Shown here piece by piece: positions 707 to 63,643 of a DNA stretch of 64,000 bases (position 1 is its first letter; each line of letters starts with the position of its first letter). The notes below the pieces were generated by a model. That model was given only the letters and a program-made list of their open reading frames with translations, made no database searches and had not been told where the DNA came from. Source of the DNA: Bdellovibrionales bacterium (GTDB lineage Bacteria; Bdellovibrionota; Bdellovibrionia; Bdellovibrionales; UBA1609). A program made the translations under genes and the position numbers. The DNA lies in the NCBI GenBank assembly GCA_965116155.1, contig OZ220488.1:977103-1041102 (forward strand), in the 5' to 3' direction.

Positions 707-895
707 TTAGAGTGCTAGCTGCGTAAGCATCAGAGCGCTAGTAAAATTCTCTGAGGTAGAGTGGCGGCACACTGATAGCCCCAACGGGGCGGCCATCAGG
801 GTGCCAAGCTTGTATCAGAGAATTTTGCGGCCTATGAAGCTTCTACGAGCCTGTGGCCTTGGGTGCTCTCTAGGCCCAAGGCGACCAGATTGCCG
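707..895. repeat. Mosaic hairpin-repeat array starting 2 nt after the tRNA-Ser CCA
   Basis: TTAGAGTGCTAG + CTGCGTAAGCATCAGAGCGCTAG + AAAATTCTCTGAGG...CTGATAGCCCC-loop-GGGGCGGCCATCAG...TCAGAGAATTTT + GGCCTTGGG...CCCAAGGC. The same modules recur at 10991-11394 and elsewhere. Boundaries approximate. Confidence 0.85.
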
Positions 896-936
896 CAAAA
901 GGGATGGAGCACGTAAGTGTAAATTAAGGAGAGGTT

Positions 937-4616: not shown

Positions 4617-5141
4617 ATGTCTGTCTTTAAAAAAAACCTCAAAAAGTCGCTTAAAAGGGTACCGTTTTTAAAAAAGCGGCCTTCTGCCAGAAAGCTTTGT
4701 TTGGAATTTTTACGCTATACGAGTTTTGCGGGGTTTATGTTTTGTTGTTTATCGGTTGCTTTGTATTTTCAAAAAAACGCTGTACAAAAAATAGAGCTAA
4801 GTGCTGCTTATGTATTGCATGCGCCGTATCCGCCTTTTAAGCAGATTATCGCCCGTATCAAGTGGCCTACGCCGCAGATTTTGTGCCAAAATTATCACTT
4901 GCCTCAAGAGTTTGATGGTTGTGTTAGGAACACCCATGTGCAGCAGTATGCTATGATTCTTATGAACGAGCGTGATTGCATTATGCAGCTGCGGCTTACG
5001 GGTTTGCAGCATAATGACGAGCTGGAGAAAAACCTTTGCATCTTGCAAAAACTACAAAACGTCAAATCACCTCGTATCGAAAAAACCATCACTGTCGCCC
5101 CACACTCTCCGCGCCCTCCCAAGCCCCAACACACCATTTAA
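4617..5141 (+). CDS. hypothetical membrane protein
   Basis: ATG at 4617 preceded by AGAAGGAAA. One TM segment (SFAGFMFCCLSVALYF). The TAA stop lies in TTAAGTGCGTAAGCAT repeat sequence. Confidence 0.45.
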   Translation: MSVFKKNLKKSLKRVPFLKKRPSARKLCLEFLRYTSFAGFMFCCLSVALYFQKNAVQKIELSAAYVLHAPYPPFKQIIARIKWPTPQILCQNYHLPQEFDGCVRNTHVQQYAMILMNERDCIMQLRLTGLQHNDELEKNLCILQKLQNVKSPRIEKTITVAPHSPRPPKPQHTI

Positions 5142-5653
5142 GTGCGTAAGCATTAGAGTGTTAGAAAAATGCCATGTGGGACGCTGTGTGGTATCCTTGT
5201 CTTTGACGATAATGTGGCAAATGAGGTCACGTTTCATTCACTTGCTTCGAGCAAACCCTGACACAGGCGACAATATTTGCCTCGATCTAGAATATCCTCA
5301 CTTCAGGTACGCACTTAGACCCCATTTGCAGGGCCATAAAGAGCTGTCTAGTGCACAAAAATGCCTCAGGCCGAACCACTTGTCCCGTAAGGATAAAAGC
5401 GCCAGCAAAAACACTTTGATCAGAGACGCAGACACATTGGCAGCCCCTGCAAGGGGCGCCAGCCAAGGTGGCAAGCGAGGCTCCCATTTAAAGTGTTTTT
5501 GCGCGCTAGACAGCCCTCAACGCGCCGATAGCTTTGGACGATCTGTAGGTCCAAAGCGTACACACTCTCGTAGATGACCCGCTTCTCGCGGCGCTATCAG
5601 GTAGACGGCGTAGGGCTGAGGACATTTTTGCTGGCACTTTTATGCTCGCGCTA
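5139..5653. repeat. Mosaic hairpin-repeat array between convergent genes (stop to stop)
   Basis: Contains GTGCGTAAGCATTAGAGTGTTAG, a long-hairpin module (5216-5351), CAGCCCCTGCAAGGGGCGCCAGCCAAGGTGG, GCTTTGGACGATCTGTAGGTCCAAAGC and TTTTTGCTGGCACTTTTATGCT. All have homologs elsewhere in the window. Confidence 0.85.
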
Positions 5654-8509: not shown

Positions 8510-8559
8510 GGATAGCACATGACCTTGTAAAAGGATCGGACAAAAGTGGCCAGTAGCTC

Positions 8560-9148
8560 AAGGTGTCCATGGCGTTAAGATAATCTGGCAGGTCAGGTCA
8601 CGTCTGGGTGTATCGCGATCCATACAGCCTTGCCCTAGGCGACAGCGCTACCCTCAATTTACATAAATTGCACTTGCGGGTACGGGCTTGGACCTAACCT
8701 GCAGGGCCATAGATAGCTGTCTAGCGCGCAAAAATGCTTAACCTAGTGCGCCACCGCTTTGCTTCAGAGAATTTTACTAGCACTCTGATTGTATTTACCC
8801 GAACGCACGGAGCTTTGACGGCAGTCTGGTCGCCTTGTGCCTAACGATCGCACAAGGCTACAGGCTCATAGTAGCTTCATAGGTCGCAAAATTCTCTGTA
8901 AGACGCTTGGCACCCTGATGGCCGCCCCTTCACAGGGGCTATCAGGATGCCGGCGTGAGCTATCCAGCACGTGAGGGTGCCCTGGAATAGCCGCTTGCCT
9001 TGCACACCTTTAGGTGTGTCAGCAGGCTGCGCTCTCTGGCCAGGGCACCCTCACTAACACTTTTATGCTTACGCACTTAGCTTCAGAGAATTTTACTAGC
9101 ACTCTGATGCTTACGCACTTTGTCCCAGGGCATTTTCCTAGCGCTCTA
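8560..9148. repeat. Mosaic hairpin-repeat array
   Basis: Long-hairpin module at 8585-8723, a short-hairpin module (GCCTTGTGC...GCACAAGGC), a reverse-oriented AAAATTCTCTG...CAGAGAATTTT module with extra DNA inside it (8956-9080), and a CTAGCGCTCTAA terminus supplying the stop of the next gene. Confidence 0.85.
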
Positions 9149-10972: not shown

Positions 10973-10990
10973 AAAAGGCTTGTCGGCAAA

Positions 10991-11394
10991 TTAGAGCGCT
11001 AGTAAAATTCTCTGAGGCACAGAGCGGCGGCACACTGATAGCCCCTCAAAGAGGGGCAGCCATCAGGGTGCCAAGCTTGTATCAGAGAATTTTGCGGCCT
11101 ATAAGAGATCTATGGCCCTGTAGCCTTGGACGATCTTTAGGTCCAAGGCGACCACACTTTCGTCACAGCCCCGTGCATTGAGCAAAAACAAATTAGAGCG
11201 CTAGTAAAATTCTCTGAGGCACAGAGCGGCAGCACACTGATAGCCCCTCAAAGAGGGGCGGCCATCAGGGTGCCAAGCTTGTATCAGAGAATTTTGCGGC
11301 CTATAAGAGATCTATGGCCCTGTAGCCTTGGACGATCTTTAGGTCCAAGGCGACCACACTTTCGTCACAGCCCCGTGCATTGAGCAAAAACCAA
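10991..11394. repeat. Tandem duplication, 2 x 202 bp, of a composite repeat unit
   Basis: Units 10991-11192 and 11193-11394 differ at about 3 positions. Each unit is TTAGAGCGCTAG-AAAATTCTCTGAGG hairpin-GGCCTATAAG-short hairpin GCCTTGGAC...GTCCAAGGC-tail. Confidence 0.95.
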
Positions 11395-11697
11395 TTAGAG
11401 CGCTAGGAAAATGCCATGTGGGACGCTTGTCTGGTATCCTTGGCTTTGACGGGAGTGTAGCAAATGAGGTCACGTTTCATTCGTTTCCTCTGAGCAAGAC
11501 CGGGTGCAGGCGGCATTATTTACCTCGATTTAGAGTATCCTCATTTCAGGTACGCACTTAGCCCTCATTTGCAGGGCCATAGATAGCTGCATAGACCGCC
11601 AAAGCACCTCTTGGTTTTCCACTTGCCTGACGCACCCAAAGGTGCATTGCCAGGCTGCGCTGCATGCAAGAGGTGCTTGGGCTAGTCTGTAATTAAT
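11395..11697. repeat. Mosaic hairpin-repeat array
   Basis: TTAGAGCGCTAGGAAAATGCC terminus, long-hairpin module at 11460-11593, and a CCAAAGCACCTCTTG...CAAGAGGTGCTTGGGCTAGTCTGTAA hairpin ending at the stop of the next gene. Confidence 0.85.
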
Positions 11698-13339
11698 GAC
11701 CACACGTAGCGACGCCGTCGGGAGAGACGTGCCAGCCGCCTTTGGACTTATGATCAGGAAGTCGTGCATCTTCACTACTAACACTATCCACCAGACCACC
11801 CAAATGTGTCCGCAGCATAGAAAGCTCTAAATTTTCACCACTGTACATGCAATGAAAAGCCTGCGCATCACTAGCATGCACCTCCTTAACCACGCCCCTA
11901 GGCACTGAAGGATACATGATGCTGCTGCGCGAATCACTATGAACCAAACCCAACGCGTGGCCCAGCTCATGCAGCATCACAGTACGAAAATGAAACTTAT
12001 CTCTACTCGGCACAGCCCCGAACTGAAAGTTCGCCCTGCCCTTTTCGCCATAAAGCTTAAAACCTATGTCCATATCCGTCACATTAAACACTGCATCGCA
12101 CAATGGCCCGCCCCCCAAACACCGTCCTCCAGAACCCACATAGGTAGAAGCCAAAACTCCCGGCGCAAAACGCGCACCCTCGTCTGAATCAGAGAGCACT
12201 TTAATAAAATTTTTCCCATCAATGGCAATGGCATCCAAACCATTGGGGTTGGTTTTTAATACCCTTATCACCTCCATACCCAAAGCCGCATTCCAAGCCT
12301 CGGCCAGATACGCTAAATCCAAGCGAGCAAAATTACCCATATCGCGGTCTAAAATAAAATCGAGCGGAAACGCGCTCTTGGGCCATGCCAAAGGGCGCCA
12401 GGCGCGCTTTACCTTAAATCCACAAGACTGCGCCGGGTACCTAGCACCTGGCTGTGTCTTATGAAACCTTTTGACATAAGCATCGTAATGCAAACGCCGC
12501 TTAACCTCGAGCAAGGCCCCAGCAGGCTGCTCAGTGTTCCAAAAATACGTTGCGCTCTTTACGCTTTTAAAACTCCACTCCGACCAGTCTGGCAATAAAG
12601 ACTCAAAAGTTCCATAAAAAGCATAATCTATAAAGCGCACATTTTTTGTATACTGGGCCTCGGGCACTTGAACTTGACGCAAATTTTGCGCATTAAAAAA
12701 AGCAAAACTCAAATCACGCCACTGCATATCGCCCAGGCTTTTAACTTTTACTAGCTTATCGTTACTCGTGCTATTCTCCCACACGAGCCCACGCCTGCCT
12801 CCCCAAGCCTTAAGCACACCCCTTAAACGCACCTCATACGTACCAGCGCGAGAGTAAGTGTGCCCCGCGCCCGCGCCATTTTCCGTTACATGCTCAATAG
12901 CGCTCCCATCGCCCCAGTCTACATAAAAATCATACGCATCCTGTATGTTAACCTTGCGCAAATACGCCGCGCTCCTTAAAGGCAAAGCCACAGCCCACGA
13001 GCGCCGGCTCACACGCCACTCGGTCACCATGGAGCTCTTGTATGTATCCAAAGCCTGCAGCACTGTGGTATCGATTTGCCGCATGGCTTCAAGACACTTT
13101 TTGTGCTGTGCAGATGAGTCTGAACAAAGTGGGAGCAGCGATTTTTTAGCAACCTCAATGGCGCTGTCTTTTTCGGTATCTTTTGCCGTATTGCCTGCGG
13201 CGTCTTGACTGCCTGCTACGAGGTGCTTTTGTGCTGCGCCAGCACCAGGAGGTGCCAGAGGCTCAAAAGCGCCACAGGCAGCAACCCAAAACACTCCACA
13301 AATAACGCCAAAACGAACCCCACGCCCCCTAATAGACAA
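11693..13339 (-). CDS. lipoprotein with DUF285/BspA-like region and matrixin-type zinc protease domain (paralog)
   Basis: TTG start preceded by GGGGGGA. Lipobox FWVAAC. YDFYVDWGDGS...HTYSRAGTYEVRLRG. HELGHALGLVHS with SIMYP. Its C-terminus GGWHVSPDGVATCGH matches that of its neighbour. Confidence 0.8.
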   Translation of the reverse strand: MSIRGRGVRFGVICGVFWVAACGAFEPLAPPGAGAAQKHLVAGSQDAAGNTAKDTEKDSAIEVAKKSLLPLCSDSSAQHKKCLEAMRQIDTTVLQALDTYKSSMVTEWRVSRRSWAVALPLRSAAYLRKVNIQDAYDFYVDWGDGSAIEHVTENGAGAGHTYSRAGTYEVRLRGVLKAWGGRRGLVWENSTSNDKLVKVKSLGDMQWRDLSFAFFNAQNLRQVQVPEAQYTKNVRFIDYAFYGTFESLLPDWSEWSFKSVKSATYFWNTEQPAGALLEVKRRLHYDAYVKRFHKTQPGARYPAQSCGFKVKRAWRPLAWPKSAFPLDFILDRDMGNFARLDLAYLAEAWNAALGMEVIRVLKTNPNGLDAIAIDGKNFIKVLSDSDEGARFAPGVLASTYVGSGGRCLGGGPLCDAVFNVTDMDIGFKLYGEKGRANFQFGAVPSRDKFHFRTVMLHELGHALGLVHSDSRSSIMYPSVPRGVVKEVHASDAQAFHCMYSGENLELSMLRTHLGGLVDSVSSEDARLPDHKSKGGWHVSPDGVATCGH

Positions 13340-19181: not shown

Positions 19182-19541
19182 TGTGCGTAAGCATAAAAGT
19201 GGCCTCTTGAAATCTTGGGCGGGTAGCGTAGCCACCTGCTCCCCTATATGGGGTGCTGCGGGTGGCAAGCGAAAAGCCCCAGGATTTCAAGGGAGAACTG
19301 GATAGCTCGTCGACTATCGGGAAGATGCGCTTAATCCCATGGCACGAGGCTTTGACGGGAGTGTCGCGGCCTTGGGCTTAAAGATCGCCCAAAGCCGCAG
19401 GGCCGTAGTAGCTTCATAGGTCGCCACATGCTCTGTGGGACACTTGTCTCCAGCGTGGTCGCCCCTTTAAAAAGGGGCTACACTGGAGACTGCGCTTAGC
19501 CCAGAGCATGTGACTAGCGCTCTGATGCTTACGCATATCTA
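19180..19541. repeat. Mosaic hairpin-repeat array filling the convergent gap stop-to-stop
   Basis: TAATGTGCGTAAGCATAAAAGTGG + CTTGAAATCTTGGG...CCCCAGGATTTCAAG hairpin (homolog at 60944-61080) + short hairpin GGCCTTGGGC...GCCCAAAGCC + ACATGCTCTGTGGGAC...CCCAGAGCATGT hairpin + CTAGCGCTCTGATGCTTACGCA. Confidence 0.85.
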
Positions 19542-27715: not shown

Positions 27716-28398
27716 CTTTGCGTAAGCATAAAAGTGCCAGCAAAAATGTGTGAGCATAAAAGTGTTAGTGAGGGCGCTCGCACGTGCTGGATAGCTTCTG
27801 ACTTCAGCCCTACGCAGTCCAGCTGATAACGAAGGGCCCCGCAGGGGAACGAAGCGTCCAAACTCACTTCAAAGGCAGGGAGGCTGCGCTTCATACTCAA
27901 GTTTTCCATAGCGTTAAGACAATCTGGCAGGTCAGGTCACGCCTGGTTTTTTCGCGATCAATAAAGCCCGGCCGCAGGCGACATTACTTGTCTCAATTTA
28001 CCTACAATTGCACTTGCGAGTACGGGCTTAGACCTAACCTGCAGGGCCATAGATAGCTGCATAGACCGCCAAAACACCTTGTTATTCCACTTGCCTGAAG
28101 CGCCTGAAGGCACTTTACCAGGCTGCGCTTCATACTCAAGTTTTCCATAGCGTTAAGACAATCTGGCAGGTCAGGTCACGCCTGGTTTTTTCGCGATCAA
28201 TAAAGCCCGGCCGCAGGCGACATTACTTGTCTCAATTTACCTACAATTGCACTTGCGAGTACGGGCTTAGACCTAACCTGCAGGGCCATAGATAGCTGCA
28301 TAGACCGCCAAAACACCTTGTTATTCCACTTGCCTGAAGCGCCTGAAGGCACTTTACCAGGCTGCGCTTCATACTCAAGGTGTTTTGGCTAGTCTGTA
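27716..28398. repeat. Mosaic hairpin-repeat array containing a perfect 2 x 239 bp tandem duplication
   Basis: Units 27882-28120 and 28121-28359 look identical by eye. Each holds a long-hairpin module (27924-28063, 28163-28302). The array ends in CAAGGTGTTTTGGCTAGTCTGTAA, which encodes the last residues of the S41 protease. Confidence 0.95.
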
Positions 28399-30534
28399 AA
28401 GATCTCTCGCGATGTTGATGGCTTCTTGGATGCGGGCCTGCTCCATGTACTCTTTGTCTCGATCGGCTTGCTCACGTTTGTACTTTTGAGCACTCGTCAA
28501 AGAGGCACGCTGTTGCTTGGTTTTTTTCTTTTTGCTCTTTGCCTTTTGGTCGTCCTCTTTTAGCTCTTTTAAGATTTCGGACAAATAAATAAATTTAGCC
28601 CTTTTTTTGTTTTTGTCTTTTTTTACCTGGGTTAAGATTTTTTTAAATTTTTTGTCCTGCTTTAACCTTTTGCGCGAAGCCGCTTTTAGTTTAGACACCA
28701 CGGCTCGGCTTAGCTTTTGCCAGGTGGGCTTTCTATGCTCGGCCTTATCCACAAAACTTGCGATTCTGGCAGACCCTAACACATAATCCAAACTCTGCTC
28801 GCCCCATTTGCTCATAGCATCATAACGGCTAGGCAAAACCACATCACCCATAACTCCCACATTTTGTGTAGACTGCCCACCTGCTGTAAAAAATAAGCCC
28901 GAAGTCACTTTTAAGGCCCCCAGCTTACCCTTAGGGCAACCCACGGCATTTACCTCCTGCACACTGCCCTTGCCAAAAGTGCGCGCACTGCCCACCACCA
29001 AGGCGCGGCCGTAATCACGCAAAGTGCCCGCCACAATCTCACTCGCACTAGCGCTGCCACGAGAGGTCAGCACCACCAATGGGCCCGACCACACCACATC
29101 GGCGTCTTTATCCAAGTAGTCTATATATTTGTAACGCACCTCCTTAGAGCGCCGACGCGTTTTTTGCCTCTGCGACTGCTTTACGACATTGGGTTTGCGC
29201 AAAAACAAACCCGCCACCTTAACGGCTTCGTCTAACAACCCACCACCATTAAAAGACACATCCAGCACCACCGCCTTAGCGCCCCGCAACTTTGCCGCTT
29301 GAAGCAATTTGCGCACATCTTTCGACGCTGCTACATCACGCGAACCCTGATAAAAAGACGGCAAATCAATCACCGCCACACTGACCTCTTGGCCACCCAG
29401 CTTGCGCGTACGGTAATGCACCTTGGCCCGCTGCTCCTCGAGGCTGATTTTTTTGCGGGTTAACGCAATAACAAACTGCTCAGGACCTTTGTCTGTTGTG
29501 CGCAAAATACCCAGCCGCACCACCGTGCCAGCAGGGCCACGGATTTTTTTAACCACATCATTCAAGTCTACGTCCCGCACTAGCTCCATAGGGCCACTCA
29601 CCCCCTGACCCACTTGCACGATTTTATCCTCTGCCTCCATTTGGCCCGACTCCATAGCCGCGCCCCCCGGCAACAAACGGTTTACAACCGTAAAGCCATC
29701 CTGAAAACTCAACTCCGCCCCAATTCCAGAAAGCGACAGCTGTGTGTTAATTTGCAAAGACTCCAGATCAGACTGTGTCATATACAAAGAGTGCGGATCC
29801 AAGGCCTTTGTAAAAGCCTGCAAATACGACTCGAGCAGCACTTGGCCAGAGGCGTCCTTTTGAGCCTTTTGCAGCATGCGCTCGTAGCGCCTTAAAATTC
29901 TGCCTTTAACTTTTTTCAGCTCATCGCCCGACGCCACCAGCTGAGCCACCAATAACTGCAAGTTGCGCCTAGTCTCTAGCCTCTGCACCGATACCGTTTT
30001 AGGCCACTGGCGATCCTTAGTATCTAGCAAAACACGGGTCCTAGGCTCCAAACGAAAAGTCTCCGGCGCCAGCTCCCGACGCACAAAGTTCACCACCTCT
30101 TGTAGGCGCTTTACATAAAGAGCATGCACCTTTTGCAAAACGGAGCAGTTTTTTCTGTCAACCTGCGCAAACACCCCTCGCATCCATTTGCGCACCTGCC
30201 TAGTATCGCTTTTTAAAAAAAACCTTTTCGAAGGGTCTAGGTGATCAATATAACGCTCAATGGTGCGGTTCTCTAGCTCTGTATTAAGGCCCACAAAACT
30301 CACATGCCGCGACAGGGCTTCGGATTTAATATATTTGACCGAAGCGCAAGAGAGCTCCCTTTGTTCCACCGGGCACATAAAGCTAAGGCTCTTGGCAATA
30401 GCCGACAAGGCCTGAGCCTCAGCGCGCGCACCAAAAGCCCCAAGGCTTAAAAAGAGCATGCAAGTGGCAAAAAACACCCACCAGTTGCGTGCCTTACGTC
30501 CAAACCCCATAGCCCTTACAGCACCATCCAACAC
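28375..30534 (-). CDS. prc: carboxy-terminal processing (tail-specific) protease, S41 family
   Basis: PDZ-like region followed by the S41 catalytic region (LTSRGSASASEIVAG, Ser; FGKGSVQ, Lys) and a lysine-rich C-terminal extension. Confidence 0.8.
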   Translation of the reverse strand: MLDGAVRAMGFGRKARNWWVFFATCMLFLSLGAFGARAEAQALSAIAKSLSFMCPVEQRELSCASVKYIKSEALSRHVSFVGLNTELENRTIERYIDHLDPSKRFFLKSDTRQVRKWMRGVFAQVDRKNCSVLQKVHALYVKRLQEVVNFVRRELAPETFRLEPRTRVLLDTKDRQWPKTVSVQRLETRRNLQLLVAQLVASGDELKKVKGRILRRYERMLQKAQKDASGQVLLESYLQAFTKALDPHSLYMTQSDLESLQINTQLSLSGIGAELSFQDGFTVVNRLLPGGAAMESGQMEAEDKIVQVGQGVSGPMELVRDVDLNDVVKKIRGPAGTVVRLGILRTTDKGPEQFVIALTRKKISLEEQRAKVHYRTRKLGGQEVSVAVIDLPSFYQGSRDVAASKDVRKLLQAAKLRGAKAVVLDVSFNGGGLLDEAVKVAGLFLRKPNVVKQSQRQKTRRRSKEVRYKYIDYLDKDADVVWSGPLVVLTSRGSASASEIVAGTLRDYGRALVVGSARTFGKGSVQEVNAVGCPKGKLGALKVTSGLFFTAGGQSTQNVGVMGDVVLPSRYDAMSKWGEQSLDYVLGSARIASFVDKAEHRKPTWQKLSRAVVSKLKAASRKRLKQDKKFKKILTQVKKDKNKKRAKFIYLSEILKELKEDDQKAKSKKKKTKQQRASLTSAQKYKREQADRDKEYMEQARIQEAINIARDLYRLAKTP

Positions 30535-30644: not shown

Positions 30645-30947
30645 TGTTTCCATAGCGTTAAGACAGTCTGGTCGCGATAGGCCTAAAGATCACCTATCGC
30701 TACAGGCTCATAGATAGCTGTCTAGCGCGCAATATTACCTTGAAGCCTACGTTTGCCATCTTGGCTAATGCCCTATGGGCAGCCAAGATGGCTGCACTCT
30801 CAGGTTCAAGGGTAACATTGCTGGCGCTTTTATGCTTACGCCAGCTGCATAGACCGCCAAAACACCTTTTTATTCCGCTGGCCTGGCGCACCTAAAGGCG
30901 CTTGACCAGGCTGCACTTCATGCTAAGGTGTTTTGGCTAGTCTTTAA
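30645..30947. repeat. Mosaic hairpin-repeat array
   Basis: CCATAGCGTTAAGACAGTCTGG + short hairpin + CAGGCTCATAGATAGCTGTCTAGCGCGC + GCCATCTTGGCT...AGCCAAGATGGC hairpin + TTTTATGCTTACGCC + CCAAAACACC...GGTGTTTTGGCTAGTCTTTAA. The final TTA is the ybgF stop. Confidence 0.85.
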
Positions 30948-35933: not shown

Positions 35934-36605
35934 ATGCTACAGATCAGTGCATGGGCGCGAAGGTGCCTTAAGTGCGGCACCCTTTGGGGAGAGTCGGATC
36001 CTTTTTGTAAAGTATGTTGGCAGGTTGTTCTTATGCATCAATTGCATAAAAAAAACCAAGCTCGCCTGCCGCAAATGCATAGAAAGGATTTTTTATTTGT
36101 GTACGATGACGCTGCAGCAGATGTTAAAGGCTTGCTGCTATACCTTAAAAACTTTTCCCATAGTACGGCTTATATCAGACTGGCGTCACACTTTGTGCCG
36201 GGGGAGGATTTTTTTTATCAGCTTGAGCAAAGGCCACGCGCGAAATTGTGGTTCATAGCTCCGCCTGCACAGACGGAGGGCGGAGGCAGCCATGCTCAAG
36301 AGTGGGCTAAGGCTTTAGCCCATAATTACGGTGGAGAGTTTTGCCATGACCTGTTGCAATACACCGAGCGGCGCGTATCGCAAAAACTACTTACCAAAAA
36401 GGCGCGCCAGGGTCTTAGGTTTAAACGCACTGGCCGTTTCCCCGGTTCGCTAGAAGAGGATGTGGTTATTTTTTGTGACGACCTACTTACAACGGGATCC
36501 AGCGCCCATGCCGCCTGGCTCGCCCTCAACAAACCTCCGCACTTTTTTGCTTGGACCATCGCATTTAGGCAATTACAGACTAGCCAAAACACCTTGAGCA
36601 TGTAG
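35934..36605 (+). CDS. ComF-family phosphoribosyltransferase-like protein
   Basis: N-terminal Cys pairs (CLKCG...CKVCW) and a C-terminal PRTase-type loop (VVIFCDDLLTTGSS). The last ~10 residues (QTSQNTLSM) are read from a repeat terminus. Confidence 0.6.
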   Translation: MLQISAWARRCLKCGTLWGESDPFCKVCWQVVLMHQLHKKNQARLPQMHRKDFLFVYDDAAADVKGLLLYLKNFSHSTAYIRLASHFVPGEDFFYQLEQRPRAKLWFIAPPAQTEGGGSHAQEWAKALAHNYGGEFCHDLLQYTERRVSQKLLTKKARQGLRFKRTGRFPGSLEEDVVIFCDDLLTTGSSAHAAWLALNKPPHFFAWTIAFRQLQTSQNTLSM

Positions 36606-36690
36606 TGCAGCCGCCTTGGCAGTCCCTGCAAGGGGCGCCAGCCAAGGTGGTGCGCGGAATATTATCAAGGTGTTTTGGCTAGTCTTTAAA
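36573..36690. repeat. Compact complete repeat element (118 bp) with TTACAGACTAGCCAAAACACCTTG / CAAGGTGTTTTGGCTAGTCTTTAA inverted termini
   Basis: It spans the gap between convergent genes. The inner hairpin is GCCGCCTTGGC AGTCCCTGCAAGGGGCGCC AGCCAAGGTGG. The right-hand TTA is the stop of 36686-38458. Confidence 0.85.
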
Positions 36691-38490: not shown

Positions 38491-38582
38491 TAAAGACTAG
38501 CCACAACACCTTGAGTATGAAGCGCAGCCTGGTAAAGCGCCTTCAGGTGCTTCATGCAAGAGACGTTTTGGCTAGTCTTTAA
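38491..38582. repeat. Compact complete repeat element (92 bp), TAAAGACTAGCC...GGCTAGTCTTTA
   Basis: Near-perfect long palindrome, TAAAGACTAGCCACAACACCTTGAGTATGAAGCGCAGCC...GGTGCTTCATGCAAGAGACGTTTTGGCTAGTCTTTA. Followed by a solo CTAGCGCTCTAA at 38588-38599. Confidence 0.85.
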
Positions 38583-38730: not shown

Positions 38731-39831
38731 ATGAAAAAACCATTCGACCCCCAATTTAACATAAGTCCCCAGCTGCTAAAGTATTTAATGCAAATCGAAA
38801 AAGCCAGGGGCTTTTTAGAAGCAGCTAACCTATCGCCAAAATGGCTCAAGCAAATGAGCCAAAACGCTCTGCTGCTAGAAACACACCATACAACGCACAT
38901 AGAAGGCACTGAGCTGACTTTGGAACAATCTAAAAAGATACTATCCGGCAAAAAAATACCTGGCGTCAGTGAGCACGATATAAAAGAAGTTAAAAACTAT
39001 AGAGACGCTTTTGGAGTTTTGTCTGATTATTTAAAAACAAACACTAATATTAGCGAAGCCTTGATTAAATCAGTGCACAAAGAACTAGTTAAGGGCGTGC
39101 GCGGAGGCCAGGCCAAACCGGGTAAATATAGAGACATACAAAACTATGTAGGCAACTCGGTTACAAAAAAAATTATCTACATGCCCCCCAAGCCAGCTGC
39201 AGTACCTGCTCTTATGAAAAACTTTGTAGCTTGGGCCAACCAAGAGTCAGACCTACACCCTGTTATAAAAAGTGGCATCATTCAGTTTCAATTTGTACAT
39301 ATTCATCCTTTTGTTGATGGCAATGCACGGACATCTAGGCTGCTGTGTGCGTTTTACCTGTATAAGTCAGATTATGATTTTAAAAGGCTTTTTTCTATTA
39401 GTGAGTATTATGACAAGGACAGGGTTAATTTTTATAATGCTATTCAGTCCGTAAGAGAAAACAACATGGATATGACACCATGGCTAGAGTATTTTGCCAA
39501 AGGACTTTTGTTTCAAATGACTAGCGTTATAGATATAGGAAAAAAAGTAATTCTGAAAGATGCTCTAAAACAAAACCGCAACCTTTCAAATAGGCAAACT
39601 CTAATTTTAGAGCACATTCTTGAAAACGGAACACTAAAACCACAAGATTTTAAAACCTTATGCAATAAAATAGAAAAAACAAAAAACACCCCTAATAAGC
39701 CCATTAACATAAGAACATTGCAAAGAGACATAAAGGACTTAATAGATAAAAAAATCATAATATCTTACGGCGCCACCAGCAAAAGGTCTTATAGCTTAAA
39801 ACCGAGTTGGCTTAAGGGGCCTTCTAAGTGA
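38731..39831 (+). CDS. fic: Fic-family protein (class II, N-terminal inhibitory motif) with C-terminal winged-helix-like region
   Basis: Fic motif HPFVDGNARTSR (Ala where the canonical motif has the second Gly). N-terminal TTHIEG fits the (S/T)xxxE(G/N) auto-inhibition motif. AT-rich relative to neighbours by eye. Confidence 0.85.
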   Translation: MKKPFDPQFNISPQLLKYLMQIEKARGFLEAANLSPKWLKQMSQNALLLETHHTTHIEGTELTLEQSKKILSGKKIPGVSEHDIKEVKNYRDAFGVLSDYLKTNTNISEALIKSVHKELVKGVRGGQAKPGKYRDIQNYVGNSVTKKIIYMPPKPAAVPALMKNFVAWANQESDLHPVIKSGIIQFQFVHIHPFVDGNARTSRLLCAFYLYKSDYDFKRLFSISEYYDKDRVNFYNAIQSVRENNMDMTPWLEYFAKGLLFQMTSVIDIGKKVILKDALKQNRNLSNRQTLILEHILENGTLKPQDFKTLCNKIEKTKNTPNKPINIRTLQRDIKDLIDKKIIISYGATSKRSYSLKPSWLKGPSK

Positions 39832-39843
39832 GACCCGATTTTA

Positions 39844-40000
39844 TTTTGCAACCTATACAGCTTACGCCCAATTAAAGCGCTAGCAAAAACTCTTTAAGCA
39901 GTAAGTGCAGTCCCCTTGGCCCCCATAAGAGGGCAGTTAAGGGGACGAAACGAAGGCCTTAAAGAGTTTTTGCGACCTATACAGCTATCAACGCGCCGGT
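39844..40000. repeat. Mosaic hairpin-repeat array, left part (interrupted by the IS3 element)
   Basis: TTAAAGCGCTAGCAAAAACTCTTTAAG...CTTAAAGAGTTTTTGC hairpin, then GACCTATACAGCTATCAACGCGCCGGT. The uninterrupted continuation ...CGCGCCGGTAGCTTTGGG is seen at 63528-63547. Confidence 0.8.
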
Positions 40001-40068
40001 TGGACTTCCCCAAATTTCATGGACACTTTTTATCGCTTGAGCGAAGGTGTATGACCCTTCCTTAAAGT

Positions 40069-40953
40069 TTAGACAGATTTCAGAGTTAGTTTTGGCCTTA
40101 CTCTGGCTCTGTTTTTCCCTAGAAAGCTGTTAATAAAGGCTTCTGGGGTAGAGTTACCGAGCGATGAGTGCGGCCTACATTTGTTATAGTCTTTTCTCCA
40201 CGTTTCCACAATAGATCTAGCATCATCCAAGCTTGAAAAGCAATTTCCCCTAAGGCACTCGTCTCGCATTTTTCCATTAAAACTCTCTATAAATCCATTT
40301 TGACTCGGCTTTCCTGGCTCAATATAACTGAGCTCAACCTTATTCTCAAAGGCCCATTGATCAAAGTTTTTACTTGTAAACTCTGTCCCATTATCCACCC
40401 GTATAAACTCAGGCACAGGATAATAGCGCCTCTTGGAATTTAAAAAACCCACCAGCTTCCTTGAATCAATTGCGTAGTCAACAAAAGAACCTATGCATTT
40501 TCTCGAAAAAATATCCAATACATTCAGTATACGAATTTTCTTTCCATCGCGAAGCCTGTCTTGCATAAAGTCCATTGCCCAAACCTGATGAGGACGCTCC
40601 GCAAGTGGCAGAGTATGCCGTATATGCTTCGCCCTTTTCTTTTTGTTCTTTCTACGAAGCTGAAGCCCTGCCGAAACATAGTAACGATAAAGAGTATTCC
40701 TAGCCACCTTCACTCCCTCTCGCATTAAAAGCACGTGCAAACGCTCATAGCCAAATCTCGGCCGATCCCCAGAAAGCTCTATAAGACGCTTCATAATCAC
40801 TTCCCTTTTAGACCTCTGCCTATGCCTCTTCTTATAATAAAAAGACGCCCTGTTGAGCCCTAAGACCTTGCAAACCCTTTTGACTGAAACTTTATACCTA
40901 GATATTAAAACTTTAGCCGCATTGGTACGAATGCAAGGTCTTAGAACTTTTTT
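40069..40953 (-). CDS. IS3 transposase OrfB (DDE catalytic part, expressed as OrfAB by -1 frameshift)
   Basis: The -1 frame is open from the heptamer A_AAA_AAG at 40947-40953. DDE region: WAMDFMQD ... [10 protein letters not shown] ... [17 protein letters not shown]. Confidence 0.85.
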
Positions 40954-41210
40954 TCAAGAACATCCTGCAGCATCTGCTTGTCTAAAGTCAGATTAGCAAC
41001 AATTTTCTTCAACCTTGAATTCTCATCCCTCAAACTCCTTAGCTCTTTTATTTCACTCACATCCATACCAGAATAAAGCTTTTTCCAGCGATACAATGTA
41101 GTCTCTGTAACCTCAAGCCTCCTGCATAGATCTTTGCCCGAAATCCCGTTCTCCAATTGCTTCAAGGCACATATAATCTGACCATCACTAAACTTTCTGC
41201 CTCTTGCCAT
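40941..41210 (-). CDS. IS3 transposase OrfA (HTH)
   Basis: 89 aa with a helix-turn-helix region and a leucine-zipper-like C-terminus. The frame ends just after the slippery site at 40947-40953. Confidence 0.85.
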
Positions 41211-41272
41211 ACATCCCTCCTAAAATACGAACCCACTAACATTATCAAGTCCAGATTTTTAAGAGAAGGTCA

Positions 41273-41380
41273 GGTAGCTTTGGGCGGTCAGTAGGCCCAA
41301 AGCGTTCAGACTCTCTTTAAAAGCACTGAGGCTGTTCCAGGAGCGCCGCTTAGTCCCAGAAAATTCTGCTAGCGCTCTAA
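41273..41380. repeat. Mosaic hairpin-repeat array, right part
   Basis: GGTAGCTTTGGGCGGTCAGTAGGCCCAAAGCG...CCCAGAAAATTCTGCTAGCGCTCTAA, homologous to 61212-61320 and 63534-63643. The terminal CTA is the htrA stop. Confidence 0.85.
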
Positions 41381-43488: not shown

Positions 43489-43608
43489 GTCTCTGCCTTT
43501 TGACATCTGCCTTTTAATCAGATTAGACCGCACAAACTCTTGCGGGCAGGGGGCCACCACCTGAGCCCCTTTCAGGGGCGCTCGGAGGCATGTAACGCGG
43601 CGCATTAA
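43489..43608 (+). repeat. Direct repeat copy 1 flanking the AbiE cassette (120 bp, with a 14-bp internal duplication)
   Basis: GTCTCTGCCTTTT(GACATCTGCCTTTT)AATCAGATTAGACCGCACAAACTCTTGCGGGCAGGGGGCCACCACCTGAGCCCCTTTCAGGGGCGCTCGGAGGCATGTAACGCGGCGCATTAA. The terminal TTA is the abiEii stop. Confidence 0.9.
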
Positions 43609-44462
43609 TAGTGCTCTAGCATTTTGTTGATAGTCAAAATTGTATCTTGAAATGTCTTTGGCAGCTTGAGGTTTGTAGCCATTGGCCCCAAACCATTAAT
43701 ATGCCTTGACCACTGCCTCTCCAAATTTTTAAGTGCAACTTCAGAGTATTGTATTGGAAAATCCTTTTGAGTTTTGCGCCTTCTAAAGGTTTCCTCTATA
43801 GCTGTGAGTAGGGTTTTTTTATCTAAAAGCTCGCCCTTTTTTGTCAAAAGATAAAGATCATGGAAGTCCTTCATTCTACTATTTATGCCGCCTCTTATTA
43901 CAAGGGTTTGCAGTTTTTCTGCAAAAATATTTTCAACAGGATAACAATTGAGTTTGATTTTTTCTTCAAAAATAGGCTCATCTTTATATGCCAACAAGGG
44001 CATGGTAATAATTTTTGGATTTATTTTGTCTCCAACACCAAGATCCATTTGCAAATGATCTTTTATTGGCCACACACTGTGCCAAATGACTAAATTAACT
44101 CTGAAGCCATTACAAATCATATGATTATGCGCCAATATATCAACCTTATGAAGATCAAAACTAAACCCATCACCAACATCTATCGAACATATCTTTTTAA
44201 AAACAGACTCCAGTTTTTTAATTTCTAAATTGATATAGGTTAGTTCAAAATCTAAGTCCTTTGTTTCTCGACCAATGAAAATATAGTAATTTAATAGGTG
44301 ACCACCCTTGAGCAAAAACTGGCCTTTAAATTGAGACTTGGACAGTCTGACCAAAAACCTCTCAAGAAAACATTTTTTTAAAACCTCGTTAAATCTTTGG
44401 TTGTTTGAAGCTGCAATGTTTCTTATTTTATCTTTAAAGACTTGCTGAGAAATGTTCCTCAT
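43605..44462 (-). CDS. abiEii: AbiEii/AbiGii-family nucleotidyltransferase toxin (type IV TA)
   Basis: 285 aa. The N-terminal FLLKGG...D.DF-type nucleotidyltransferase pattern (FLLKGGHLLN...TKDLDFE) is typical of AbiEii. 4-nt overlap with the upstream antitoxin gene. AT-rich by eye. Confidence 0.75.
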   Translation of the reverse strand: MRNISQQVFKDKIRNIAASNNQRFNEVLKKCFLERFLVRLSKSQFKGQFLLKGGHLLNYYIFIGRETKDLDFELTYINLEIKKLESVFKKICSIDVGDGFSFDLHKVDILAHNHMICNGFRVNLVIWHSVWPIKDHLQMDLGVGDKINPKIITMPLLAYKDEPIFEEKIKLNCYPVENIFAEKLQTLVIRGGINSRMKDFHDLYLLTKKGELLDKKTLLTAIEETFRRRKTQKDFPIQYSEVALKNLERQWSRHINGLGPMATNLKLPKTFQDTILTINKMLEHY

Positions 44463-45070
44463 ATGGTTGTTGCCATTTCAATATACGGTGTTATGTTAAT
44501 ACGAAGCTTTCTTGAAAGTGTTTCTAGTTTGTTCATATCAATGTCTACCTTGGTTGAAGAAAAAGCAGACCTCAGTGCTTTAATAGCAGTTTCTAGACTG
44601 AGAAATTTAAAAGACTCTAGTATCACTCGCTCAACACAGTATATTGAAATAGAGACATCCCCAATATCTATGCTGCTTATACCAACACTATGATTGCGAG
44701 ACCGTATTATTTTAACACTCGCCCTTTTTTTAAGAGAGGTTGCATGAGGAACCGATATCCAGTGAAAACGAGGAATCTCTTCTGTCAGATTGTATAGCGC
44801 CAGTGCAGAAGTTCCTGTAACAACCGCGCTTGGTATTTCAAGCGCACAAAAGACTAGGTCTTCCCACTCAATACTAATCTGAGGCGGATGGCCCTTGGGG
44901 ATGTACAGACCTCGCCCGATCTTTTCAAGTGCGCCAAGTTTTTTATAATGGTATAGCAGGCTTGCGGAAAACCCGTTTTCTACAAAGTCAGCGGTGGTGA
45001 TAATCTTTTTTTGAAGAATACCTTTAACTGCATCTAGTTTAACGGTGTGAGATGCGCTGTTTTTGCCCAT
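44459..45070 (-). CDS. abiEi: AbiEi-family antitoxin / transcriptional regulator
   Basis: 203 aa with an N-terminal wHTH-like segment (ITTADFVENGFSASLLYHYKKLGALEKIGRGLY). The position and ATGA overlap with abiEii match the AbiE operon layout. Confidence 0.65.
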   Translation of the reverse strand: MGKNSASHTVKLDAVKGILQKKIITTADFVENGFSASLLYHYKKLGALEKIGRGLYIPKGHPPQISIEWEDLVFCALEIPSAVVTGTSALALYNLTEEIPRFHWISVPHATSLKKRASVKIIRSRNHSVGISSIDIGDVSISIYCVERVILESFKFLSLETAIKALRSAFSSTKVDIDMNKLETLSRKLRINITPYIEMATTI

Positions 45071-49450: not shown

Positions 49451-50159
49451 TTAGAGTGCTAGGAAAATGCCATGGGATTAAGCGCATCTTCCTGGTAACC
49501 CCTGAAAGGGGTGTCCACCAGGAAGATAAGCGTCCCACATGGCATTTTCCGGCCTATAAGGAGTCTATGGCCCTGTAAATCGAGTGAAAGCGGCGCACCT
49601 GAAATGAAGCTCGTGTAGAACAAGGCAAATAACCACGCCTGCGGCCGGATGCGCTTGGTTAAGGTGAGCTGAGCGGACTCGATTTACCACACTTCCGTCA
49701 AAGATATGAACACCTCTTGCATGAAGCGCAGCCTCCTTGGCTAACGCGTCTTAAGGCGCTGCCAATGGGACACATAGTCGCTTCATAGGTCGCCACATGC
49801 TCTGATGCTTACGCAGCTAGCGCTCTGATTTGGGTTTACTCAATGCACGGGGCCTTGACGGGAGTGTGGTAGCCTTGGGTCTATCGAGCACCCAAGGCTA
49901 CAGGCTCATAGATCCCTTATTAGCTGTCTAGCGCGCAAAAATGCTTCAGGCAGGACCACTTGTCCATCTGATGGCCCGCGCCTAGAGGCGCTATCAGCTG
50001 GACTGCGTAGGGCTGAAGTCATTTTTGCTGGCGCTTTTATGCTTACGCTTATAGGTCGCAGAATTTTCTGCGGGACGCTTGCTACCATCGCGGCCGCACC
50101 CTACAGGGTGCTGCGATGATAGCGCCGCTTTGTCCCAGAAAATTCTGCTAGCACTCTAA
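49451..50159. repeat. Mosaic hairpin-repeat array (about 0.7 kb)
   Basis: TTAGAGTGCTAGGAAAATGCC...GGCATTTTCC hairpin, reverse-oriented long-hairpin module (~49565-49715), GCTCTGATGCTTACGCAGCTAGCGCTCTGA, short hairpin GCCTTGGGT...ACCCAAGGC, TTTTGCTGGCGCTTTTATGCTTACGC, and terminal CTAGCACTCTAA inside the 3' end of the next ORF. Confidence 0.85.
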
Positions 50160-50939: not shown

Positions 50940-51110
50940 TGAAGCCTACGTTGGCCACCTTGGCGCTCCTGCGTTGCAAATGGCTGCACTCTAATGCTTA
51001 CGCACTTATAGGTCACCAAAACACCTCTTGCTTTTTCGCTTGCCTGGTGCTCCAAAGGCGCTTTACCAGGTTGCGCTACACGGCACGAGGTGTTTTGACT
51101 AGTCTTTAAA
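50940..51110. repeat. Mosaic hairpin-repeat array
   Basis: GCACTCTAATGCTTACGCACTTATAGGTCACCAAAACACC...GGTGTTTTGACTAGTCTTTAA. Ends 1 nt before the stop codon (51111-51113) of the next gene. Confidence 0.8.
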
Positions 51111-54061: not shown

Positions 54062-55861
54062 GTGACGGATTCCATAATACAGCACCACTCTACTTTTGTA
54101 CTCATGTGTGCCGGCATAGCAGCGTTTTTGTATGGCATGGGGCTTGTAAGCTCGAACCTTAAAAAACTCACAGCCAACCGCACAAAAGACCTTTTGCAAA
54201 ATCTGAGCAAACGTCCCCTTTGGGGTTGTGCAGTAGGGGCATTGCTTTCGGCCCTTATGCAGAGTGCAGGAGCGGTGAACACCATGCTAGTAGGCCTTGC
54301 CCAGGCTAGGGTGGTGAGCCTAAAGCAGGTCATCGGCGTGGTGCTAGGTGCCTCGGTGGGCAGCACTCTGACGGTGCAGCTGATCTCTTTGCAAGTTTAT
54401 CACTATGGGCTGGGGATTTTTGCCATAAGTTTTGCAGGGATGTTTTTTGCTAAGAAAATGCTCCTTAAAAGTAGCTGTCACGCGGCCATGGGAGTGGGGC
54501 TTTTGTTTATGGGCCTTGAGTGGATCAGCTTTAGCAGCATGGCGCTTAAACAGTCGCCGTTGTTTTTAAGCGCACTGGAGCAGCTATCGCATATGCCCTG
54601 GGCTGCCATGTTGGCTATGGCGGCTTTTTCGGCTTTGGCGCAATCGGCAACAGCGGGCTTAGGGCTTACGATCTCTTTTGCTACGGCGGGTGTTATTAAT
54701 TTTGAGCAAGCTCTTTACTGGGTGTATGGAGCCAATATTGGATCTACTGCTACGGCCCTTATGGCAGCTATTGGAGGCACAGCCGCTGCACGCCAAGTGG
54801 CTTGGTCGAACTGTGCTTTTAAAATCTGCTGCGTTGGGGTGTTTTACTTTTTAACTCCTTATGTTGCTGGATTTGTGCCTGGCTCTACTCCGCAGCGTTT
54901 AGTAGCTAATGCCCATACTTTGTTTAATCTTTTGGGTGTGTGCATGGCGCTACCCATAAGCCACTGGGTGGTGGGTTGGCTAGAGCGTAGTATTGGGCCT
55001 TCGGCAGCAGAGCGTAAATTTGATGTGCAATTTTTAAACAAGCCGCACTTTAACTCACTGCCTGTTAGGTTAACCCATGCGCGCCGCGAGGCCCTGCGCA
55101 CAGCGGATGTGTTTTTGTCGGTGCTAGATGATGCTATTTTGTTAATTCAAAACGAAAACACCGAGCTATGGTCTAGTGTAAAAAAACGCGTCAGGCATAT
55201 TGATTTTTTAAGTCTCGAGGTGAGTCGGTTTTTGGCTCGTGTTGCCCATAAGGCGCCCCCTCCCTTGGATACAGAGGTGATAAACGTTGTAGCCTTTGTG
55301 ACGGATGTTAAAAATGCCGCCAGTGTTATAGACAAACAACTGCGGGGCCAGGCGAAAAAAAAGCACAAACTCAAGCTTAATTTTCATGCGCAAAGTTTTA
55401 GCGAAATCCGCCGGCTCCACAAAGAAAGCCTCAACCTGTGCACTTTGTCTTTTAGTGCTTTTCAAAACTCCTTGCAAAGCCATGCTACGCACGAGCAGGC
55501 CATGCAGATTATGCGTCTTAAACGGCATATTAAAAAGTTCGAAGCCACTTTTAGGGTGCAGCATCTTAAGCGCGTGGCGGAGGGCAAAGAGCACTCTTCT
55601 GTAAGCCCGATGTATTTTGATATCATCACCAGCTTTCGCAAAATTTCCGGCCTGCTCAGCAACCACCTTAAGCCCTTACAGACTAGCCCAATATTCTGGG
55701 ATAAAGCGGCGGCGCGAGAGCAGCACCCTCAAAAGGGTGCGCCCGCGATGGCGCCAAGCGTCCCGCAGAATATTGGGCGGTCTATGCAGCAATCTATGGC
55801 CCTGCAGGTTAGACCTAAGCCCGTACCCGCAAGTGCAATTGATATTAACCAAGGCCAATAA
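54062..55861 (+). CDS. Na/Pi cotransporter family protein with PhoU-like C-terminal region
   Basis: Polytopic N-terminal half (QSAGAVNTMLVGLA, QSATAGLGLTISFA repeats) and a helical PhoU-like half. Roughly the last 60 codons (from ~55677) are read from repeat DNA, so the native C-terminus is uncertain. Confidence 0.8.
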   Translation: MTDSIIQHHSTFVLMCAGIAAFLYGMGLVSSNLKKLTANRTKDLLQNLSKRPLWGCAVGALLSALMQSAGAVNTMLVGLAQARVVSLKQVIGVVLGASVGSTLTVQLISLQVYHYGLGIFAISFAGMFFAKKMLLKSSCHAAMGVGLLFMGLEWISFSSMALKQSPLFLSALEQLSHMPWAAMLAMAAFSALAQSATAGLGLTISFATAGVINFEQALYWVYGANIGSTATALMAAIGGTAAARQVAWSNCAFKICCVGVFYFLTPYVAGFVPGSTPQRLVANAHTLFNLLGVCMALPISHWVVGWLERSIGPSAAERKFDVQFLNKPHFNSLPVRLTHARREALRTADVFLSVLDDAILLIQNENTELWSSVKKRVRHIDFLSLEVSRFLARVAHKAPPPLDTEVINVVAFVTDVKNAASVIDKQLRGQAKKKHKLKLNFHAQSFSEIRRLHKESLNLCTLSFSAFQNSLQSHATHEQAMQIMRLKRHIKKFEATFRVQHLKRVAEGKEHSSVSPMYFDIITSFRKISGLLSNHLKPLQTSPIFWDKAAAREQHPQKGAPAMAPSVPQNIGRSMQQSMALQVRPKPVPASAIDINQGQ

Positions 55862-56035
55862 TCACGCCTGCAACTGAACCTTATTAATCATATAAAACCA
55901 AGGCGTGGTCTGACCTGCCAGATTGCCTTAACGCCATGAACACCTGGAGTATGCAGCGCAGCCACCCTGACAGCCTCCTTTAGGAGGCGAGCACTCAGGA
56001 GTGGCAAACGGAATGTTATCAAGGTGTTTGGGGGA
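55677..56035. repeat. Mosaic hairpin-repeat array overlapping the 3' end of the Na/Pi cotransporter ORF
   Basis: TTACAGACTAGCCCAATATTCTGGGA...TCCCGCAGAATATTGGGCGG hairpin, reverse-oriented long-hairpin module (55794-55921), GCAGCCTCC TTTA GGAGGCGAGC hairpin, and CAAGGTGTTTGG. Confidence 0.85.
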
Positions 56036-59491: not shown

Positions 59492-59650
59492 AGCGCTAGC
59501 TGCGTAAGCATAAAGGCAATAGCAAAAATGTAGCCCACACGAATTACCCACCTTGGTAGCGTAATGTTTTTTCTTTCCCCCATAACAGCCCCTTTTAAAG
59601 CCTTTTTGTTTTAGTTTTTTAATTAAAAAATGCCCCAAAGGCGCGCGGGC

Positions 59651-63294: not shown

Positions 63295-63643
63295 GTGTGT
63301 GCGGGCTTAAAGTTGAGGCAGCAAAGGGCCGAAAGATCACACAAGGCTACAGGCTCATAGATGCCGTATAGACTGCAAAATTCTCTGCGGGACGCTTGGT
63401 CCGTAAGGATTAGAGTGTTAGCCACATGCTCTGGGCCAAGCGCAGTCTGCCTGATAGTCCCTGCAAGGGACGACCATCAGGTAGACAAGTGCCCCACAGA
63501 GCATGTGGCGGCCTATAAGGCTAACAACGCGCCGGTAGCTTTGGGTGGTCAGTAGGCCCAAAGCGTTCAGACTCTCTTTACAAGCACTGGGAGGCTGCTC
63601 TACCGCCGCCGCTCTACCTCAGAGAATTTTACTAGCGCCCTAA
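63295..63643. repeat. Mosaic hairpin-repeat array ending 20 nt before an ankyrin start codon
   Basis: Short hairpin, AAAATTCTCTGCGGGAC, TTAGAGTGTTAGCCACATGCTCTGGG...CCCACAGAGCATGTGG hairpin, GGCCTATAAGG, AACGCGCCGGTAGCTTTGGGTGGTCAGTAGGCCCAAAGCG, and ...CAGAGAATTTTACTAGCGCCCTAA. Confidence 0.85.

Follow-up and report, generated by a model that had tools for sequence, protein, structure and literature searches.

The 64,000-nucleotide stretch of a Bdellovibrionales chromosome considered here (contig OZ220488.1, positions 977,103 to 1,041,102; hereafter the window) is ordinary bacterial chromosome of about 48-50% G+C. It carries housekeeping genes for TsaD, DapA/B, SecG, Tmk, HolB, Prc, AcrB, DsbD and others, and interspersed repeats make up some 6-7 kb of its roughly 9.7 kb of non-coding DNA. 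The subject of this report is one of these repeats, a long module of about 115 nt from stem to stem, which is closed by a 12-bp stem in every copy and is either intergenic or overlaps the 3′ end of an open reading frame (ORF). The module is a conserved foot with a conserved flank that together close a large, loosely constrained loop; it is not a long rod. Selection or a strand-specific process keeps the foot paired while single-stranded, and does so on the complement of the strand on which the module was first described.

An initial annotation of this DNA had claimed at least seven copies of the module. A profile of the copies, searched against the window, returns exactly seven full-length matches, which amount to six distinct sequences, the pair at 27924 and 28163 being an exact tandem duplicate within an exact 239-nt repeat (27881-28119 and 28120-28358). 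The interior of the module has no occurrence away from these seven copies. Alignment of the copies extends the homology over about 190 nt, and the distinct copies fall into three subfamilies, A (n = 3), B (n = 2) and C (n = 1), as follows.

27911..28055, plus strand: long copy of subfamily A, the one flagged in the initial annotation; closing stem 27927-28042 with arms at 27927-27938 and 28031-28042; 92-nt interior; 5′ flank GCGTTAAGACAATCTG, 3′ flank AGGGCCATAGATA; the minus strand is the better-folding one
28150..28294, plus strand: long copy A′, exact duplicate of 27911..28055 within the tandem duplication 27881-28358; closing stem 28166-28281
8572..8715, plus strand: long copy of subfamily A; closing stem 8588-8702 with arms at 8588-8599 and 8691-8702
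55791..55934, minus strand: long copy of subfamily A; closing stem 55804-55918 with arms at 55804-55815 and 55907-55918; overlapped by the 3′ end of ORF 54062-55861
11444..11585, plus strand: long copy of subfamily B; 5′ flank CTTTGACGGGAGTGTA; closing stem 11460-11572 with arms at 11460-11471 and 11561-11572
5201..5342, plus strand: long copy of subfamily B; closing stem 5217-5329 with arms at 5217-5228 and 5318-5329
49562..49703, minus strand: long copy of subfamily C; closing stem 49575-49687 with arms GTAAATCGAGT/ACTCGATTTAC at 49575-49585 and 49677-49687; alone among the long copies, it folds better on the strand antisense to the genes around it

The closing stem exists in several mutually complementary versions, and all the arm pairs quoted in the initial annotation are present: GCAGGTCAGGTC/GACCTAACCTGC, GCAGGTCAGACC/GGTCTAACCTGC, GCAAATGAGG../..CCTCATTTGC and the pair of copy C. 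The copy at 55791..55934, for instance, shows two compensated pair changes, from GGTC/GACC to GACC/GGTC. The accompanying claim that the two arms change together was confirmed across the three subfamilies: 9 of 14 pairs show two-sided change and 96.4% of the cells are paired, a level that none of 500 shuffles reaches, and pairing drops to 20-40% when the register is slid. The number of independent compensatory events turned out to be modest (about 6-8 over the three subfamilies). When 16 feet of the long copies and of their short relatives described below were pooled, 92% of the cells were paired and compensatory change was found at 11 of the 12 pairs, with 24 extra pair types; again, none of 500 shuffles matched this. 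Some mismatches are themselves conserved: every type-A long copy has U·G at stem position 7, and 8 of the 10 scored short hairpins have A·G at stem position 3. Since pairing in the closing stem is kept through sequence change, these data argue for selection on a folded single strand, as the initial annotation had supposed.

The same annotation pictured the module as a long hairpin of about 135 nt, and this picture has to be given up. The sole helix supported across the long copies is the 12-bp closing stem, perhaps with 2 bp more past a small internal loop, and minimum free energy (MFE) z-scores for the whole module are weak, from -2.1 to +0.2. The stem closes a loop of 89-92 nt. Identity between subfamilies is 45-62% in this interior and 77-100% in the 13-nt flank beside the stem. 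In the interior, RNAalifold, run on both strands, returned no conserved helices but only weak, inconsistent pairs. A hand-proposed 5-bp interior helix, CGYYT/AGGCG, was rejected, as its changes are one-sided only. A coding interior was likewise rejected by a six-frame check, with stops in every frame of most copies and an indel between subfamilies. The length and the sequence of the loop are largely free. The shared motifs listed in the initial annotation hold in part. In the 3′ flank CAGGGCCATA alone is invariant, AGCTG being missing from the copy at 49565; of the inner motif, AGGCG is the invariant part, the copy at 8585 reading TAGGCG. For the motifs CAGGGCCATAGAKAGCTG and GTACG..CAGGGCCATA, shuffled sequence gives an expectation of zero matches.

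The wobble pairs reveal which strand is constrained. In the orientation of the initial annotation, the transition-type mismatches in the stems of long and short hairpins read C·A or A·C without exception, never G·T. Seen on the complement, every one of them becomes a G·U/G·T wobble, giving 12 cells (about 6-7 independent events) vs. 0. The constraint on the stem is strand-specific, and the complement, not the strand originally proposed, folds best. Its fold is the more stable one in 5 of 6 short hairpins, 10 of 13 X rods (a neighbouring repeat family, see below) and 3 of 6 long copies, and the loop-closing pair of the short hairpins reads C-G, U·G or U-A on it. This asymmetry strengthens the case for a folded single strand. 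Read on the complementary strand, the elements show the conserved upstream motif CTATGGCCCT, followed by a G(T/C)AG tag and the stem; the consensus runs CTATG(G/A)(C/G)CCT, then G(T/C)AG-stem ... stem, then CA(G/C)A(C/T)T...CGTCAAAG. The tag together with the flank directly 5′ of the foot is the most conserved feature on this strand. GTAG is found in 8 of 10 short elements, and the six distinct long copies carry GCAG (five) or GTAA (one), in a tag that is paired and not free. At five of the six loci, the long module folds better on the strand that is in sense with the upstream gene.

Short relatives of the module are present in at least 11 copies in the 64 kb. They are 33 nt long, with a 9-nt loop, and have the flanks and the stem foot in common with the long module. 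The five short hairpins named in the initial annotation are real and do use the same flanks; the one at 11112-11160 proved to be reverse-oriented and tandemly duplicated, and six more exist.

8813..8874, plus strand: short hairpin with the same flanks, a 12-bp stem and a 9-nt loop; the reverse strand begins GTAG
19350..19411, plus strand: short hairpin with the same flanks as the long module
30655..30716, plus strand: short hairpin with the type-A 5′ flank GCGTTAAGACAGTCTG
49853..49914, plus strand: short hairpin with a perfect 12-bp stem, head-to-head with long copy C
11107..11168, minus strand: short hairpin with a second copy at 11309-11370, within a 202-nt tandem duplication
840..901, minus strand: short hairpin downstream of tRNA-Ser

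The six not named in the initial annotation are the tandem duplicate at 11309-11370 and the relatives at 843 (the element 840..901), 5528, 41274, 61213 and 63535. The idea that the long form arose by insertion into the loop of a short hairpin was ruled out: the two stems are different along their whole length, and the interior is not flanked by remnants of a loop. An IS3-family insertion sequence (IS) at about 39998-41254 (orfA 40941-41210, orfB 40069-40800, ends TGGACTT...AAGTCCA) sits between the flank CAACGCGCCGGT and the hairpin of the short element at 41274-41306, an insertion that recalls the IS elements targeting repetitive extragenic palindromes (REPs).

The long module never stands alone but occurs in a fixed grammar beside X, its dominant partner, a three-tier rod hairpin of about 95 nt with at least 17 copies in the window. 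X folds with z-scores of -5.5 to -8, and its outer stems of 11-21 bp show complementary changes between copies. After a long or a short hairpin, the order is ...hairpin-CAGGGCCATAGAT-AGCTGCATAGACC-X-TAGTCTGTAA, and such units are found singly, as head-to-head pairs and in tandem arrays (239 nt, 202 nt). Copies of X are these, with the elements that adjoin long modules listed again individually.

743-826, 5405-5502, 11004-11093, 11206-11295, 11602-11678 and 19425-19512: X copies
28307-28389, 30856-30937, 36577-36685, 38491-38581, 39883-39973 and 49462-49550: X copies
50058-50148, 51017-51097, 55686-55778 and 63421-63509: X copies
28305..28399, plus strand: X element following the long module in fixed orientation; outer (alpha) end TAGTCTGTAA
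11598..11692, plus strand: X element after a long copy of subfamily B; its alpha end directly adjoins the stop codon of ORF 11693-13339 (gap of 0)
55676..55780, minus strand: X element adjoining the long copy at 55794, inside the 3′ end of ORF 54062-55861
1626, 1732, 9146, 11693, 23876, 30944, 36686, 41377, 51111 and 59491, with the tRNA-Ser end at 704: gene ends abutted by X or the mosaic

The outer end of X, TAGTCTKTAA or TAGCGCTCTAAT, abuts, overlaps or supplies stop codons. Its offsets to gene ends are -5 (five cases), -4 (two), 0 (two) and +1 (two); one of the last two is at the 3′ end of tRNA-Ser. Read in gene sense, many ORFs end in ...T TAG followed by AGCGCTAG... or in ...T TAA followed by AGACTAGCC..., and all 11 classifiable stop-adjacent X copies turn the same end to the gene, including those behind two plus-strand genes. 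This arrangement suggests either that X inserts at stop-codon sites of the form TTA(A/G), or that a structure directly after the ORF is selected for. Two of the ORFs extend into repeat sequence. The alpha end and the right arm of the X element at 28305..28399 encode the last 8 codons and the stop of a Prc-like gene (ORF 28375-30534, minus strand; overlap 28375-28399), whose database counterpart P0001 has the same length of 719 aa. The plus-strand ORF 54062-55861, for a Na/Pi-cotransporter, runs for 179 nt (55683-55861) through an X rod into the long module, so that about 59 C-terminal codons come from the rod and part of the module. Not every unit is in sense with its neighbours: one long copy, about 4-5 short hairpins and about 3-4 X copies are antisense, and these are the inner-facing halves of head-to-head arrangements. 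Symmetric X copies have TA at both sides, in the manner of miniature inverted-repeat transposable elements (MITEs).

The copies amplify locally by unequal recombination, and nesting of elements inside one another is probable. At 10987-11390, a unit of X and short hairpin is tandemly duplicated as near-exact (99%) 202-nt repeats; these lie head-to-head with the long module and X unit at 11444-11692, so that the 720 nt separating two paralogous matrixin-like genes consist entirely of repeat mosaic. The X element in 8880-9109 has its arms AAAATTCTCTG (8888-8898) and CAGAGAATTTT (about 9085-9095) some 186 nt apart vs. the usual 53-72 nt; the extra length appears to be another rod hairpin inserted inside it, with stem arms at 8971-8985 and 9040-9054, and a nested element at about 8960-9075 is probable. 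A family of linker motifs (…TAGCTGCGTAAGCAT…) is seen at 701-746, 5124-5169, 59482-59527 and 9069-9151, between duplicated X outer-end motifs and directly after gene ends.

Among the other genes of the window are tandem paralogous genes for secreted-protease-like proteins with a matrixin domain (9146-10972 and 11693-13339, also 5651-8518), with Asp-rich repeats of 9-nt periodicity at 7659-7749 and 10809-10872 and repeat mosaics between the genes. Accessory genes in a region of 40-45% G+C (38731-39831, 43605-45070, 45395-47272, 61341-62420 and 59651-60583) encode a Fic protein, an AbiEi/AbiEii toxin-antitoxin pair, two ankyrin-repeat proteins and a YhgA/Transposase_31-like protein. A host-associated or predatory way of life is hinted at by the genes for the ankyrin-repeat and Fic proteins.

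The repeat family looks confined to an isolated lineage. Apart from one match of 100% identity, the homologues of the Prc protein are at most 43% identical, some of them labelled Bdellovibrionales. In a genome collection of species representatives, the pattern TRCAGGGCCATARANNGCTG gave 48 single chance matches in unrelated taxa and no related genome. In a metagenome collection, a 25-base module-specific pattern gave no match, and a looser pattern gave 42 single chance matches, none of which extended past the motif when compared with an nhmmer profile. A BLAST search of plasmids found no match to the module. Within the 64-kb window there are no Y1/RAYT (REP-associated tyrosine transposase), TnpA-IS200, TnpB, IscB or IS110-like genes, and no Y1_Tnp match among the roughly 50 ORFs. 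The Rfam scan returned only two tRNAs at gathering score in the window and, at E<=10 over two module regions, nothing credible, HEARO/omega-type RNAs, ribozymes and riboswitches included. No U-tract hairpin is conserved among the copies, terminator-like matches being seen in the copies at 27924 and 28163 only, and no promoter signal is conserved among them either.

Several described systems resemble the module in part. REPs are marked by GTAG/GYAG tags, stems of 6-13 bp, complementary stem subfamilies, frequent G·T pairs, dimers, clusters and mosaics, and have loops of 2-27 nt; the GTAG-24 REPs have stems of 12-13 bp with conserved mismatches (PMC3733652). Like GTAG REPs and their mosaics, the bacterial interspersed mosaic elements (BIMEs), which RAYT/TnpA-REP mobilises or processes, the module is extragenic and dense and forms a hairpin with a G(T/Y)AG-type tag at one foot after a conserved motif; it has complementary stem subfamilies and G·T pairs, lies mostly downstream of ORFs, and occurs in single, inverted-dimer and tandem arrangements interleaved with other repeats. 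Its copy number (7 long and at least 11 short elements in 64 kb) and its head-to-head and tandem arrangements are those of REPs as well. The usual REP unit of 20-40 bp with a short loop is matched by the short relatives and not by the long module. In place of GTAG the long module has GCAG, which is within the published GYAG degeneracy (PMC3733652), or GTAA, and the family has no sequence kinship to any described REP. The hairpin-forming REP doublets known as REPINs also are units of about 100 nt whose ends pair, with a spacer less conserved than the ends and with compensatory changes, which are common across the REPIN hairpin (PMC3116915). REPINs, however, are rods throughout, built with a palindromic REP at either end, whereas the arms of the long module are non-palindromic 12-mers and its interior has no conserved pairing; the X rods come nearer to the REPIN shape.

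Correia-type MITEs of Neisseria share with the module a short non-coding sequence, inverted termini, a position nested in or adjacent to other repeats, overlap with gene ends and the filling of intergenic space. MITEs differ by their target duplication, the flanks of the module being asymmetric, conserved and not direct repeats, and the TA-flanked X rods are closer to this class than the long module is. Palindrome-associated transposable elements (PATEs) derived from IS200/IS605, and integron attC sites, are likewise recognised as a folded single strand, with conserved mismatches, one active strand, a conserved foot and a terminal loop of variable length. The module, however, has no pair of left-end (LE) and right-end (RE) hairpins and no R″/R′ complementary boxes (RYYYAAC...GTTRRRY). 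Its flanks are not mutually complementary, its copies lie between ordinary chromosomal genes in both orientations without a cassette arrangement, and the window holds no integrase or TnpA.

Stem compensation, strand specificity, the tag with its flank, the free loop, the local duplication and the probable nesting match published REPs and REPINs, and from this we infer a REP-like family. The long module belongs to a known kind of structured repeat, and is unusual in its loop of about 90 nt and in the strict grammar and stop-codon anchoring of the mosaic around it. More specifically, we consider it, with a probability of roughly 0.55, to be a lineage-specific, non-coding repeat of the REP/BIME class in a long-loop variant, probably the substrate of a RAYT-like HUH enzyme and co-transcribed in 3′ untranslated regions (UTRs). 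Copies would have spread as folded single-stranded DNA (ssDNA) substrates of a structure-specific HUH/Y1 enzyme (RAYT or IS200/IS605-like), presumably encoded elsewhere in the genome. A precedent is provided by TnpA-REP, which needs a folded ssDNA hairpin with a bulge and a conserved motif before it (PMC8266576). Because the long modules follow, in a fixed order, X rods that start at stop codons, most of them are probably co-transcribed into 3′ UTRs, where the hairpins may secondarily affect the stability of mRNA 3′ ends; such co-transcription would be either a by-product or a function that was co-opted. The transposition intermediate proposed in the initial annotation stays viable in the form of an ssDNA hairpin substrate.

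A number of points weigh against this reading. At about 90 nt the loop of the module far exceeds those described for REPs, which have about 27 nt at most. In the collections searched, the element turned up in no related genome or metagenome. With Y1/RAYT, TnpA-IS200 and TnpB genes absent from the 64-kb window, the enzyme is hypothetical. The candidate 5-bp interior helix would have its wobbles on the forward strand, in weak conflict with the strand assignment, and the orientation and wobble data fit a constraint at the RNA level equally well.

That last point opens the way to a different account, which we regard as possible though rather unlikely: the module and its neighbours would be RNA elements, i.e., 3′-UTR structures such as 3′-end protectors, processing sites or terminators without a U-tract, with selection on the transcript and a copy number owed to the duplication of a useful cassette. 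The wobbles are indeed G·U on the sense strand of the upstream gene at 5 of 6 long-module loci, the stop-adjacent X copies all have the same end towards the gene even behind the two plus-strand genes of a mostly minus-strand region, and mosaics begin 0-5 nt from stop codons and also behind a tRNA. Moreover, Di Nocera et al. interpret the frequency of G·T pairs in REPs as pointing to a function of the RNA (PMC3733652). What speaks against a purely RNA-level role is that the antisense units (one long, about 4-5 short and about 3-4 X copies) run opposite to the genes on both sides and lie head-to-head with sense units, that no U-tract terminator is conserved, that the interior has no conserved structure, and that stem subfamilies with conserved asymmetric flanks resemble recognition sites and not generic stabiliser hairpins. 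The mRNA 3′ stabiliser or terminator suggested in the initial annotation survives accordingly as a 3′-UTR element, in sense at those 5 of 6 loci, and falls as a conserved U-tract terminator. Recognition of double-stranded DNA is less probable still. The 12-nt arms would then be the terminal inverted repeats of a MITE, bound by a DDE transposase, and would match one protein rather than pair with each other. Inverted termini of 12 bp, a non-coding core of about 90 nt, multiple subfamilies, the likeness of the neighbouring X rods to TA-flanked MITEs and the IS3-family element in the window would all suit a MITE, but there is no target-site duplication, the asymmetric conserved flanks are common to the 33-nt hairpins, and 9-nt loops of short hairpins cannot be transposon bodies. 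The IS3 element is the sole IS of the window, and its ends (TGGACTT...) bear no relation to the arms; a strand-asymmetric mismatch spectrum (12 vs. 0 wobble cells) is not predicted by recognition of double-stranded DNA.

Selection on structure may also be dispensed with altogether, the arms being kept complementary by template-switch correction of a quasi-palindrome or by gene conversion. Quasi-palindrome correction is an established mutational mechanism for imperfect palindromes, and the independent compensatory events are few (about 6-8). Yet the conserved mismatches, U·G at position 7 of type A and A·G at position 3 of 8 of the 10 short hairpins, persist uncorrected, the interior between the arms has not been palindromised, and long and short forms have the same foot geometry, which makes a purely mutational origin very improbable. 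Hardly any credence is left for the guide RNA relic of the initial annotation, or for a stand-alone guide (omega RNA/reRNA or bridge/seek RNA) of an RNA-guided nuclease or recombinase. Such a guide would have the size (about 115-190 nt), the multi-copy distribution and the stem-closed architecture of the module and nothing else in common with it: no Rfam family matches the module, whether at gathering score or at E<=10, the window has no gene for TnpB, IscB, Y1 or an IS110-like protein, the interior shows neither structure nor much conservation, and the flanks are shared with simple 33-nt hairpins.

A bolder reading of the module and its partners appears improbable at present. In it, X rods placed precisely at stop codons as structure-specific mobile hairpins, with GTAG-footed hairpins after them, would form a genome-wide, lineage-specific system in which the long form brings a payload of about 90 nt into 3′ UTRs, either as a new HUH-mobilised element with cargo or as a family of cis-acting RNA modules shaping the 3′ ends of most transcripts of a deep-branching bacterium.

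As an advance, the REP-like assignment is incremental, compensatory stem evolution having already been documented for REPs and REPINs. If it is true, this genome provides a case unusually rich in structured repeats of a selfish or regulatory kind, with about two thirds of the non-coding DNA of the window built from a small vocabulary of covarying hairpins. The REP concept would be extended to a REP-type foot that tolerates a 90-nt loop, a tolerance suggesting that the recognised determinant is the tag and about 12 bp only. The strand-asymmetric wobble pattern provides a concrete prediction of the active strand. In general, the X rods abutting stop codons may offer a natural system for the question of stop-codon targeting versus 3′-end structure.

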